Origin: Acytostelium subglobosum
Taxonomy: Eukaryota
Direction: 5' to 3'
NCBI RefSeq assembly: GCF_000787575.1
Contig: NW_012236516.1
Coordinates: 284,922-321,832 of the forward strand
Length of the DNA stretch: 36,911 nt
The translations under genes and the position numbers were made by a program. Under the pieces are notes generated by a model. That model was not told the DNA's origin and searched no databases. It worked only from the letters and a program-made list of their open reading frames with translations. Shown one piece after another: positions 21,921-29,163 of this stretch (the first letter of the stretch is position 1; every line of letters begins with the position of its first letter).

Positions 21921-24900
21921 ATGGTTCGTGGTGGCAATGATAGAGGCAGAGGACGTGGTGGTAGAGGAGGCCGCGGCGGCCGCGGTGGCGGTCGTGGTGG
22001 CTCACATGCTCCCAATCCGCTATCCTCAGGACTTGACAATCAGGCTGGATCATCGTCGTCATCGTCGTCTCCAGGAAAGAAACAATCCGAGTTCTTTAGC
22101 GAACTCCAGGTCGCGCCATTCCAGGCGCTGGACCCCAACCAGCTCGTGCAGCTCAAGCTCAAGCTGATCAACGTCGTCTCGGCTTCGATGATCAAAGAGC
22201 CACGCTTCAACCAGATGTCACCGACACTGGAGCTCATCATCACGTCGGTGTACAGCATCGCCCACTACGACCCAGAGTTCGTACTCAAGTTGGCGTTGTA
22301 CACACGTGATGAACTTGGCATCCGAACTGTTGCCAACTATCTTTTGTGTTTGGCCGCAGTCATCGCGCCCTGCCAGCCATTCATCAAGCGCTACTTTAGC
22401 GAATCAATCAAGATCCCCTCCGACTGGTTGGAGTTGCCAACAATCGTGTCCAAGCTTACCGAGTATGTATCCATCACATGTCCAACACCATCATCCACCC
22501 TCAATGAAACAATGACTAACCTCTTGCCCTTCCACCACCCATGTAGTTCCAACTCCATTCCCAAGTCATTGAGGAATGTAATGGTGGACAAGTTCCCAGA
22601 CTTTGACGCCTACCAACTTGGCAAGTACAACACTGAGACCAAGATCAAGAGAAAGAGAAAGAAGTTAAAGGTATGTCTATCCATCCACTCCCTCGCCCAC
22701 GCCAATCTATCCATCACGCAATACTAACACCATCACTCACTCAACCAAACAGAAACTCATCAAGAAGCATCCAGAGGACAAGGAGAGATTGATGAAGGAG
22801 TTTGAGGAGAACCAGACAGCATCGTTGAAGCAGCTGATTCGTGTGCTGCATATCTCTCAACCAAACTACAACGTCATGTGCATCCTGGGCAAGAAGTACC
22901 CAGCAACCTATGACGAATACAAGAAGCTCAACTTGCCAGGCGACTTTGACCCTGAGCGCGCCAACAAGAGGATGAAGCTGCCCGTGCCCGAGACCTGGGA
23001 GACCTTGCTCTCTGAGAAGGGCAACAAGTCCACAACCTGGGAGGAGCTGATCGATCACAACAAGCTCCCTTTCATGGCCATGCTTCGTAACCTGCGCAAC
23101 ATGATCGTGTGCGGTGTCCAAGGCTCGTACCACGACTGGATCATCAAGAAGCTGACCAACGAGCAGACCATTGCCTACTCCAAGCAGTTCCCACTGCGTT
23201 TCTTGGCCGCCTTTGACGCGATCCCCAAGGACATTGACCAGCTCAAGGAGTGGGCCGCTGAGAAGCAGACCAAGATCACCTACCTCCCACCCAAGGATCT
23301 GTTTGATCAGTACCGTGCCGCCCTGGACACATCGGTCAAGTTGTCCACCACGCTCAACGTCAAGCCAATCCGTGGCACGACCGTCGTGTTTGTCTACGTT
23401 GGTGGTGGCGAGACCACTTGCAAGAGCAACGGCAAATACACCATGGTTGAGTCGGCCTTGCTCCTGGGTCTCATGTGCAAGTATGTGAGCGAGGAGTGCC
23501 AGTTGGTCCTCGTTGGCAAGAAGCCCAACGACGACAAGGAGGTCTTCTTGATGCCAGTCGAGCATGTCAGCACCGACTCGATCCTCCAGAACATCAAGAC
23601 TCTCAAGGAGACAATCAGCACCAACTTCCATCCAACAAACACCTACGAGTTCTTCCCAACTCGCTACGTGATGGACATGATCCTAGAGAAGAAGCGCGTG
23701 GACAACATTGTGGTGCTCAACCACCAGACCGTGCAGTTTGAGTCTGAGCAGTTCAACAAGAACATCCTCACCAAGTATCGCCAGGACGTCAATGGCGACT
23801 TGTTGTTCGTCAACATCAACCTCAGTGGCAGCGGCAAGGTGCAAGAGTCGGACGCTCACCAGAACGACGTCTACATCTCGGGTTTCAGTGACTCGATCCT
23901 CAAGTTCATCGCTGAGCGAGGTGGCGCTGATCAGCAGCTGCAGTACATCGAGAAGATCGACCAGATCAAGAAGCTGCCACTGCTTAAGCAGAGCGAGACT
24001 GCTTCATCGCAGAGCACTGACGCGGCCTCTGCCGCCGCCGCAGCTGCAAGCCACAGGTCGGCTGAGGACTTGAACCAGGACATCCAGAGACTGGTGGGCG
24101 TGCCCCGTTCAACGCTCAAGCCCTGGACCAATATCAGGATCTTCATCTCGTCCACATTCCTGGACATGCACGGCGAGCGTGACCTGCTCGTCAAGTACGT
24201 GTTCCCTGAGCTTCGTGAGCGTTGCGCCCGCCGCAAGATCCACATCACCGAGGTCGACCTGCGTTGGGGTATCACCGAGGAGGAGAGCTTGAAGAACCGC
24301 AGTGTGGAGATGTGTCTCGACGAGGTCGAGCGCTGCAAGCCGTTCTTTGTCGGTCTGCTTGGCCAGCGTTACGGTTGGGTGCCCACCAACTACAAGCTCA
24401 GCAGCGAGGAGCGTTACGACTGGGTGCGCGAGTATCCCAAGGGCCGCTCAATCACCGAGCTCGAGATGGTGTCGGCCATGAATGCTGGCGCCGACAAGGC
24501 CCTGTTCTACATCCGTGACCCCTCATTGATTTGGGAGGTACCCAAGGAGTATCGTTCGCACTTTGAGACCGAGGACCGCGAGTCTGCCGTGAAGCTGGAG
24601 AACCTCAAGTCAGTTGTGCGCCAGAAGAGTTCATACTACACCTACTCTGCGACCTGGGGCGGTGTTGTGGATGGCTTGCCCACCACTACCGGCCTTGAGG
24701 ACCTGCACCAACACATGCTGGACGACCTTTGGAACAGGATCAATCAGGAGTGCCCCATCGAGGAGGAGTCCGAGGAGCATATCGATCTGATGGCCAGCGA
24801 GACCAACCAGCAAGAGGTCTACGCCGAGTCCAAGGCTCGCAGATTCGTCGGTCGTAAGGACGACATCAACTGTCTCTTCAAGTTTGTCGAGGTGCTGCGT

Positions 24901-27900: not shown

Positions 27901-29163
27901 GGCCACTCGGGCTCGATCGAGAAGGGCTTCTTCACACCGGACAACAAGTACATCATCACCAGCTCGTTCGATGGTACAATCAAGGTGTGGGACCCATCTG
28001 GATCTGAGCTCACCTCGCTCAAGCATGCCTCCAGAATCAGCGACATTGTGCATACGGGTGGCGATACCATCCTCTCGTCGTCTGACGATGGAGAGCTCAG
28101 GAAGTGGAACCCTATCTCTGGTCTCTGTCTGGCCACCCTCACAGGACACTCTGGTCCCGTCAAGCAAACCGTCTTCCTCGGACAGGATTCTTCTGGCAGC
28201 AGCACCAGCAGTTTTGGCAGCAGCGAGAAATCATTCGCCAAGACACTGGCATCAGCTTCAGAGGATGGCTCGGTCAAGGTTTGGGACTTCACCAACCTCA
28301 CCAACCTGGTCACAGCCCATCAGTCCTACATCAACGACTGCTCATACTCGACTGATGGCAAGCTCCTGGTCACAGTGGGTGATGACAAGTGCATCAAGAT
28401 CTGGGACACCAAGACCGGCAACAACATCAAGACCATCGTGTCCAACAACTCTATCCCCACATCATGCGCCTTCACCGCCAATGGAAAGATTGTCGTTGGC
28501 AAGCAGAATGGAGAGTTGGTCGTCTATGACGTTGCCCCTGACTTTACAGAGCGGGCCACCTACAATGCTCACCAGTCCAAGGTGTCATCCATTGCCGCAT
28601 ACAAGCACGACGACGATACCTACGTATCTGTTGGCTGGGACCGTGTTGTCAACCTCTGGAGCAACAAGTCGTGCATCAAGCTCACACAGACTGCCGACTG
28701 GATTGAATGCGCAGCCTTCTCGCCCGATGGAGAATGGATTGCTATCGCTGGACGCCAGAACGAGATCACATTGATCAAGCCCAACAAGCAGACCACTACA
28801 GTGCGCACCTCGTTCGATGTCAAGTACATCACATCTATGGTCTTCTCGCCCGACTCTGAATCTCTCGCCATTGGAACATTTGGCGGAGACGTCGAGATCC
28901 TCAACATTGCCTCGCGTCGCTTCAGCGCAGTGTGCACCGCTCAGAAGGAGGCCATCTCATGTCTGCGCTACCTCGATGACTCGAGACTGGTGTGCGCGTC
29001 CAAGGATCGCAGTCTCATCGTTTGGAACCTTGAGAAGAGTGAGATTGAGAACGAGTTCATCCACAACGCTGCCATTATCTCCATGGACTGCAGAAACAAC
29101 AGAATAGCCACAGGCGACAGCAATGGAAAGCTTTATTTATTGTCCTATCATAAGAGTAAATAA
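21921..29163 (+). CDS. TEP1: TEP1-like protein (telomerase/vault-associated protein 1 homolog): RGG-rich N-terminus, TROVE domain, DUF4062, NACHT P-loop NTPase, ~20 WD40 repeats; 3 exons, ~2390 aa
   Basis: Exons 21921..22462, 22547..22670, 22753..29163. Intron 1 is 84 nt (in frame) from GTATGT at 22463 with branch GACTAAC. Intron 2 runs GTATGT at 22671 to aaacag at 22752 with TACTAAC. N-terminus: MVRGGNDRGRGRGGRGGRGGRGGGRGG. TROVE hallmarks: LIRVLHISQPNYNVMCILGKKYP, PETWETLLSEKGN, WEELIDHNKLPFMAMLRNLRNM, then a vWA-like VVFVYVGGGETTC. DUF4062-like: IRIFISSTFLDMHGERDLLVKYVFPELRERCARRKIHITEVDLRWGITEEES...LGQRYGWVP. NACHT Walker A: IIVVGGKAGSGKSSLLAHF. From about 26460 onward there are repeated WD40 units (GHTNWVSSLSFSADSKLFASASWDNSVILWD, GHQQAVNCCRFSPDSNYLVSGGWDSSVIVWN, GHTDWINFVAFSPDSKRLVSGGWDFNVKVWS, and others). 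The stop TAA lies inside an AATAAA at 29159..29164. Confidence 0.88.

Follow-up and report, generated by a model that had tools for sequence, protein, structure and literature searches.

On the forward strand of the window (the whole 36,911-nt stretch of DNA analysed), positions 21921-29163 hold a single gene of 3 exons and 2 short introns, which starts with an ATG at 21921 and ends with a TAA closing at 29163. Once spliced, its coding sequence of 7077 nt translates without internal stop into a protein of 2358 aa, in which an RGG box, a TROVE domain, a vWA-like DUF5920 region, a DUF4062 domain, a NACHT-type P-loop, an APAF1-like helical domain and about 21 WD40 repeats follow one another. The gene, its exons and introns and the regions encoding each domain are as follows.

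21921..29163, + strand: complete TEP1 orthologue gene, from start to stop codon, collinear from end to end with TEP1 of other dictyostelids, whose proteins have 2304-2432 aa
21921..22462, + strand: exon 1, phase 2 at its end; the protein starts MVRGG..., and its H. album counterpart MVRGA...
22463..22546, + strand: intron 1, 84 nt, with a GTATGT donor, a GACTAAC branch-point-like site and an AG acceptor
22547..22670, + strand: exon 2
22671..22752, + strand: intron 2, 82 nt, with a GTATGT donor, a TACTAAC branch-point-like site and an AG acceptor
22753..29163, + strand: exon 3, including the TAA stop at 29161-29163
21927..22001, + strand: RGG/RG box, aa 3-27, 6 RGG
22155..23262, + strand: TROVE, aa 79-392, coordinates spanning both introns (Pfam PF05731, E 7e-85)
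23419..23982, + strand: DUF5920, vWA-like region directly after TROVE, aa 445-632 (Pfam PF19334, E 4.8e-14)
24124..24744, + strand: DUF4062, or "NIR", predicted TIR-like NADase domain, aa 680-886
24928..25326, + strand: NACHT-type STAND P-loop NTPase, aa 948-1080, with Walker A at 24970-24999 and Walker B at 25258-25290
26047..26367, + strand: APAF1-like helical domain, aa 1321-1427 (Pfam PF17908, APAF1_C, E 2.7e-5, 24.5 bits for a cut-off of 22.8)
26491..29160, + strand: WD40 array of about 21 repeats, aa 1469-2358 (Pfam WD40, E 6e-126)

A single giant TEP1-like gene of this extent and domain order, with two introns carrying GTATGT donors and TACTAAC branch points, had been proposed by a first-pass annotation made from the letters alone, and both proposals were upheld by the 2358-aa frame, the Pfam matches, the collinear homologues and the splicing signals. 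The introns lie after ...SKLTD and after ...RKRKKLK, and each position matches an intron of the annotated H. album gene. Across the window, the GTATGT...(A)CTAAC...AG pattern is over-represented, with 8 matches for 0.49 by chance. We rejected the reading of the locus as several genes or a pseudogene because the frame is uninterrupted and the orthologues are collinear over their full length; among the latter are single transcripts, complete ones, of amoebozoan transcriptome data (e.g. Mastigella, Phalansterium). The spliced protein has no exact entry in the large protein collection searched, and the gene may therefore be unannotated in A. subglobosum; the best protein matches listed include none at 90% identity or above.

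The peptides first quoted as TROVE signatures were all recovered, LGKKYP at aa 267-272, PETWETL at aa 301-307 and KLPFMAMLRNLRNM at aa 326-339, as was the Walker A segment GGKAGSGKSS at aa 962-971, and the alignment revealed a KLPFMAMLRNLRN block in TROVE that is nearly invariant among orthologues. The anticipated Pfam profile stood for TROVE, DUF4062 (aa 684-793, E 1.2e-15) and WD40, all significant, but not for NACHT itself, which at 26.2 bits fell marginally below its cut-off of 26.7; the P-loop region was instead captured by NPHP3_N (aa 948-1072, 29.5 bits, above the cut-off of 24.8). The Walker motifs, GKAGSGKS for A and LIDGIDQL for B, are both intact and conserved in the orthologue alignment. 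Some 20 WD40 repeats had been expected and about 21 were counted, 19 of them by a purpose-built repeat HMM and 2 by eye, a number sufficient, as judged from the repeat count, for three seven-bladed propellers; the TEP1-specific propeller family PF25047 (Beta-prop_TEP1_2nd) was matched at E 2.5e-80. The RGG-rich N-terminus, put forward as a feature missing from human TEP1, is real, being present in every full-length amoebozoan TEP1 examined and in none of 8 metazoan ones. We dropped the idea that the A. subglobosum protein stands apart in having lost the vWA MIDAS motif, because this motif is poorly conserved among TEP1 proteins generally.

The DUF4062 domain aligns with the human TEP1 structure 11gz of the PDB (E 1.8e-57, 47% identity). 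In human TEP1, NADase activity depends on E1008 and is exerted inside vaults (10.64898/2026.05.01.722283; 10.64898/2026.09.04.749371), and this catalytic residue corresponds to E793 (codon 24463-24465), while R954 and R976 are retained as R738 and R761. The position of human R908, where replacement by Ala reduces activity, is occupied by Leu, as in 44 of 121 homologues. The TELE motif has both its glutamates unchanged throughout 20 orthologues, and the predicted structure of the DUF4062 segment is confident, its closest structural matches being TIR domains. On these residues and this modelled fold, the domain is predicted to be of the TIR-like NADase type, and NAD+ hydrolase activity is likewise predicted for the A. 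subglobosum protein.

The locus has its orthologues in the TEP1 genes of dictyostelids, of other Amoebozoa and of Metazoa. Among the best matches listed, the closest full-length ones are dictyostelid (H. album 70%, Synstelium 61%, Tieghemostelium 55%, Dictyostelium 52% identity), followed by other Amoebozoa, such as a Pelomyxa "telomerase protein component 1" at 42%, and then by metazoan TEP1 proteins at 30-37%. The best full-length collinear matches are TEP1 proteins, including some called telomerase protein component 1, and the tree placement follows the species tree, a neighbour-joining analysis setting the protein beside H. album TEP1, inside Dictyostelia. In addition, the adjoining gene encodes a protein that matches, at 100% identity from end to end, GAM24955.1 of the dictyostelid Acytostelium subglobosum LB1, whose genome was published in 2015 (PMC4334915). 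We therefore assign the locus, with high confidence, to A. subglobosum LB1 as its TEP1 (telomerase/vault-associated protein 1) orthologue, of single-copy type.

This placement bears on the suggestion, drawn from the "fungal-style" introns, that the host would be an early-diverging fungus or an unstudied protist in which TEP1 reveals an unexpected lineage of vault or Y-RNA-like RNPs. The GTATGT donors and (T)ACTAAC branch-point-like sites are indeed yeast-like and over-represented in the window, but the identity of the neighbouring protein, the nesting of TEP1 inside Dictyostelia, the intron positions common to H. album, the absence of named fungal proteins among the 120 best TEP1 matches listed and the lack of any sign of chimeric assembly in the window leave this reading practically no credence: the host is a dictyostelid, and vaults and TEP1 are already documented in Dictyostelium and Amoebozoa (PMC3762200, PMC13100048). 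It is also very improbable, if slightly less so, that the protein is a NIR-NACHT-WD40 NLR-like paralogue of NWD1/NWD2/NPHP3 type, or a Ro60-like TROVE gene fused to such an NLR, rather than a true TEP1 orthologue. Proteins combining DUF4062, NACHT and WD40 are abundant in Amoebozoa (10.64898/2026.09.04.749371), and the Pfam families NPHP3_N and HTH_NWD1 were both matched here. Against this, TROVE and DUF5920 lie upstream of DUF4062 in one uninterrupted frame, where NWD1, NWD2 and NPHP3 carry an N-terminal NIR without TROVE or vWA; the entire length is collinear with TEP1 from dictyostelids to vertebrates; the TEP1-specific propeller family and, for the DUF4062 segment, the human TEP1 crystal chain are matched at E 2.5e-80 and 1.8e-57; and the Ro-type TROVE proteins of the PDB reach E 1.8e-4 only.

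Orthology to TEP1, a minor vault subunit that binds RNA and cleaves NAD, being retained, its cellular setting has to be considered. TEP1 is reported to be part of the vault in Amoebozoa (PMC3762200) and one of its core constituents in trypanosomes and mammals, and vault RNA stability requires it according to work cited in PMC12547018. Within the 36,911-nt window, we found no MVP, vPARP, vault or Y-like RNA and no tRNA gene; searches against Rfam at gathering thresholds and at E<=1 gave no vault, Y or other credible RNA, the sole matches being two chance-level archaeal snoRNAs (E about 0.5-0.7), and no dictyostelid vault RNA is defined in the literature covered. A dictyostelid TEP1 working mainly outside vaults, either as a free cytosolic NLR-like immune sensor with a NADase effector or as a telomerase accessory, with incidental vault residence, would be in keeping with a STAND architecture like that of APAF1 and bacterial Avs (discussed in 10.64898/2026.05.01.722283) and with the report that no minor vault component is exclusively vault-localised (PMC13100048). 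We nevertheless judge it improbable, since the D. discoideum orthologue (Q54CB5) is enriched and prominently labelled in MVPA-TurboID proximity labelling (PMC13100048), TEP1 is core to the vaults of trypanosomes and mammals (PMC12547018), and the mouse TEP1 knockout, as cited in that same article, is without telomere phenotype.

By analogy with homologues (PMC13100048, PMC12547018), a vault-associated TEP1 orthologue is predicted to associate physically with MVP vaults and to bind vault or telomerase RNA. As in these homologues, the TROVE/vWA module (the p80 homology region) would bind a small Pol III RNA and tether it inside the vault, the enclosing particle would be built from major vault protein, and the NACHT-helical-WD40 part would act like a STAND switch of the APAF1/NLR type. 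The Amoebozoa-wide RGG box probably contributes unspecific affinity for RNA, or else a target of arginine methylation. A bolder proposal, which we regard as unlikely although less so than the readings weighed above, is that amoebozoan TEP1 would be a functional variant, in which the RGG box, standing in for the N-terminal region of Metazoa, draws in a small RNA particular to the lineage as vault RNA, the NACHT-WD40-NADase combination serves these bacterivorous amoebae as an NLR-like switch of innate immunity, and the Arg-to-Leu change at the R908 position alters NADase regulation.

Since Dictyostelium is a standard organism in vault work and amoebozoan TEP1 is documented, the A. subglobosum protein adds nothing new on vault distribution, and in a lineage long known for vaults it is unsurprising: it is an ordinary orthologue, one more TEP1 in a published dictyostelid genome. 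Our results confirm conservation across Dictyostelia for both the TROVE-NIR-NACHT-WD40 architecture and the catalytic glutamate of the NADase, identify the RGG N-terminus as a common trait of amoebozoan TEP1 proteins, and supply a gene model for a protein absent from the large collection searched. Dictyostelids, being genetically tractable, could serve for testing whether vault TEP1 depletes NAD+, as has newly been proposed.

Compared with known systems, the resemblance of DUF4062 plus NACHT to bacterial antiphage STAND proteins, pointed out at first reading, was substantiated: Swarozyc, NIR-Avs2, Vulcan and Vesta also have a TIR-like NADase effector that either forms a fusion with a STAND NTPase or acts together with one (10.64898/2026.05.01.722283; 10.64898/2026.09.04.749371), and PADLOC returned a weak local Avs2 match (E 1.2e-6) in the P-loop region. 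The likeness to bacterial NIR defence proteins is however limited to individual domains, the present gene being eukaryotic and intron-bearing, with TROVE and WD40, and their phage-sensing context is inapplicable to it. It is no member of the bacterial Avs or Swarozyc, with their prokaryotic defence context and full-length similarity, as it has spliceosomal introns and belongs to an amoebozoan genome. Ro60 and bacterial Rsr share with TEP1 a TROVE followed by a vWA-like domain and bind small Pol III RNAs; unlike TEP1, Ro60 is without NIR, NACHT and WD40 modules, and the MIDAS-like motif of the vWA is not conserved in dictyostelid TEP1 proteins. Human and vertebrate TEP1 (Q99973) have the same TROVE, vWA-like region, DUF4062, NACHT, helical domain and WD40, with the catalytic Glu and 2 of the 3 active-site Arg of the human enzyme retained here. 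In place of the human N-terminal repeats, the A. subglobosum protein has its RGG box, no N-terminal TEP1 repeat family of Pfam being matched at E<=0.1. Human TEP1 is about 2630 aa long, and the A. subglobosum protein about 270 aa shorter. At the H. album locus, the flanking genes are not syntenic with those here and the introns are AT-rich, whereas those of A. subglobosum are C-rich with strict GTATGT/CTAAC signals; both intron positions are nonetheless shared, and the two proteins are 68-70% identical. This H. album PN500 "WD40 repeat-containing protein" (2401 aa) and D. discoideum Q54CB5 display the same domain order as the A. subglobosum protein, from the RGG N-terminus to the last WD40.

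At 21921-29163 on the forward strand, a 268-codon open reading frame is followed by one of 2124 codons, and splicing out two short GT-AG intervals, each starting with GTATGT and holding a (G/T)ACTAAC branch-point-like site, produced a 7077-nt coding sequence of 2358 amino acids without internal stops. The two introns with GTATGT donors and branch points proposed by the first-pass annotation were thereby recovered, and their positions, after ...SKLTD (phase 2) and after ...RKRKKLK, are equal to those of the annotated TEP1 gene of Heterostelium album (locus L001, 10001-17374). The yeast-like GTATGT...CTAAC...AG pattern was over-represented in the window (8 matches at 6 distinct sites versus 0.49 expected):

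5044-5125 (+), GTATGT...CTAAC...AG site
12873-12952 (-), GTATGT...CTAAC...AG site
18427-18496 (-), GTATGT...CTAAC...AG site
22463-22546 (+), TEP1 intron 1
22671-22752 (+), TEP1 intron 2
29832-29914 (-), GTATGT...CTAAC...AG site

The TROVE, DUF4062, NACHT and WD40 modules share a single uninterrupted frame, in exon 3, and the spliced protein aligned collinearly from end to end with 2300-2430-aa orthologues, including complete single transcripts from amoebozoan transcriptomes. Its start (MVRGG) corresponds to that of H. album (MVRGA), and the C-termini also match up. The locus is one gene, not several. Antisense open reading frames within the coding region (22741-23631, 27528-28313 and 24631-25092, all on the reverse strand; the longest of 296 aa) are most simply explained as by-products of GC-rich (about 55%) codon usage rather than as genes. 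Short introns of this genome are C/A/T-rich, and those of H. album TEP1 at equal positions are AT-rich. Microsatellites of (CAAT)n, (TCAATCAAACGAACGA)n and (TTCA)n at 5455-5508, 20682-20739 and 35301-35385 occupy intergenic, intronic or 5' leader DNA, and the CAAT/CATT-rich composition makes introns read as 'SINQS/HSLTH' strings in ORF listings.

Pfam searches on the spliced protein confirmed the domain order put forward from sequence reading, and all the peptide signatures then quoted were found in it. TROVE, DUF4062 and WD40 matched as predicted, while NACHT (26.2 bits) stayed marginally under its cut-off of 26.7 and the P-loop was instead detected by NPHP3_N, over its own cut-off:

aa 79-392, TROVE (E 7e-85)
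aa 445-632, DUF5920, a vWA-like region that the first-pass annotation had not named (E 4.8e-14)
aa 684-793, DUF4062 (E 1.2e-15)
NACHT-type P-loop (NPHP3_N, 29.5 bits)
between this P-loop and the WD40 array, APAF1-like helical domain
large WD40 array (E 6e-126), including the TEP1-specific propeller family PF25047

Neither Walker A (GKAGSGKS) nor Walker B (LIDGIDQL) is disrupted, and both motifs are conserved in the alignment. A repeat HMM made from the protein detected 19 WD40 units and 2 more were recognized by eye, giving about 21, close to the 20 or so announced and sufficient for three seven-bladed propellers. Every sequence-defined TEP1 feature tested was found in this protein, and the gene is a TEP1 orthologue, as had been called. 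The annotated model of Cavenderia fasciculata TEP1 (P0006, 2304 aa) aligns without a Walker A segment and with a portion of its vWA-like region missing, which probably reflects a mistaken gene model, not true loss.

The yeast-like introns had also suggested a fungal or obscure protist host, and this attribution did not hold. The neighbouring gene upstream, at 20753-21496 (+), encodes a Diphthami_syn_2 protein that matches GAM24955.1/XP_012752044.1 with 100% identity and 100% coverage. This entry, named 'hypothetical protein SAMD00019534_081300', comes from Acytostelium subglobosum LB1 (Amoebozoa, Dictyostelia, Acytosteliales), a species with a published genome since 2015 (PMC4334915). The best TEP1 matches came from H. 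album (70%), Synstelium polycarpum (61%), Tieghemostelium lacteum (55%), Cavenderia (55%) and Dictyostelium species (52%), followed by other Amoebozoa (about 40-45%) and metazoan TEP1 (30-37%), and a neighbour-joining tree placed the protein next to H. album, within Dictyostelia. The host is a dictyostelid despite its yeast-like introns, and the phylogenetic surprise vanishes because this lineage has long been known for vaults and vault-associated TEP1.

Two 2026 preprints show DUF4062 to be a TIR-like NADase ('NIR'), report that the TEP1 NADase activity depends on E1008, is greater at higher protein concentrations and occurs within vaults, and propose the NACHT-WD40 part as an APAF1-like switch (10.64898/2026.05.01.722283; 10.64898/2026.09.04.749371). 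The likeness of DUF4062 plus NACHT to bacterial antiphage STAND proteins, pointed out by the first-pass annotation, is correct and has now entered the preprint literature. Residues 680-886 matched the human TEP1 crystal chain 11gz_A (E 1.8e-57, 47% identity). An offset that fits each of the four published residue numbers puts E793, R738 and R761 of the present protein at human E1008, R954 and R976, and L692 (codon 24160-24162) at R908. In human TEP1, mutation of R908 to alanine reduces NADase activity; of 122 sequences (121 homologues and the present protein), 59 have Arg and 44 have Leu at this position. The T-E-x-E motif keeps both its Glu in all of 20 orthologues, and aa 670-902 gave a confident AlphaFold model (pLDDT 87.8). 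The match to the human chain, residue conservation and confident model thus indicate that, as far as sequence can tell, the protein has the features needed for a vault-type NADase that is activated by oligomerisation and coupled to a TROVE module that binds RNA.

The RGG N-terminus noted at first reading is real, with six RGG triplets in residues 3-27 (21927-22001). All the full-length amoebozoan TEP1 proteins that were inspected (from six dictyostelids, Pelomyxa, Mastigella and Phalansterium) carry RGG/RG-rich N-termini (1-9 RGG upstream of TROVE), and none of the eight metazoan orthologues does; the latter have longer, unrelated N-termini. The one amoebozoan sequence devoid of it, from Stereomyxa, starts near TROVE and could be truncated at its N-terminus. 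On this comparison, the RGG N-terminus is a lineage-level feature, not specific to this gene, and may plausibly act as an accessory module for RNA binding or arginine methylation.

As summarised in PMC12547018, TEP1 belongs to the minor components of vaults; its TROVE (p80 homology) region mediates assembly into an RNP with vault RNA, which TEP1 stabilises. Its status as a vault component covers Metazoa and Amoebozoa (PMC3762200), and the Dictyostelium discoideum orthologue Q54CB5 was prominently enriched in proximity labelling with MVPA-TurboID, MVPA being a major vault protein (MVP) of that species (PMC13100048). By analogy with these homologues, we infer NADase activity, an RNA partner and vault localisation in A. 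subglobosum: the TROVE region would bind and stabilise vault RNA, the DUF4062/NIR domain would work as an oligomerisation-activated NADase within vaults, and the NACHT-WD40 part could serve as an APAF1-like switch. A reading in which the RGG box and the Leu at the R908 equivalent make amoebozoan TEP1 a variant form, with an RNA partner specific to the lineage and an NLR-like function in immunity, seems to us quite unlikely.

Neither MVP nor vPARP was found within the window, where the remaining neighbours are ordinary housekeeping genes (PH/F-box/RhoGAP protein, Rab GTPase, P4-ATPase, adaptin and DEAD-box helicase). Local synteny around TEP1 is absent between H. album (GL291023.1; flanks: PrmC-like methyltransferase, RPC5, gamma-glutamyl transpeptidase) and A. 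subglobosum (Diphthami_syn_2, adaptin, P4-ATPase, DEAD-box helicase), though intron positions are conserved. The Diphthami_syn_2 product is stand-alone and DPH6 N-terminal-like; after A. subglobosum, its relatives are H. album (51%), then closest named sequences mostly from Mucoromycota fungi (40-50% identity), which suggests a patchy distribution.

The exact 2358-aa protein was not in a collection of 15 billion protein sequences where the neighbour GAM24955.1 is present, and none of the matches listed reached at least 90% identity; the A. subglobosum TEP1 gene may therefore be unannotated or modelled differently, and is not classed as literally already known. Other known families were discarded. 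The protein is not an NWD/NPHP3-type NIR-NLR, since TROVE and a vWA-like region precede its NIR domain, nor is it of Ro60 type, given its additional modules and the weak hit of its TROVE domain in the PDB (E 1.8e-4). Membership in a bacterial defence family was likewise rejected, the sole PADLOC signal being a local Avs2 match on the P-loop (E 1.2e-6). From the known TEP1 family it differs in no meaningful way.
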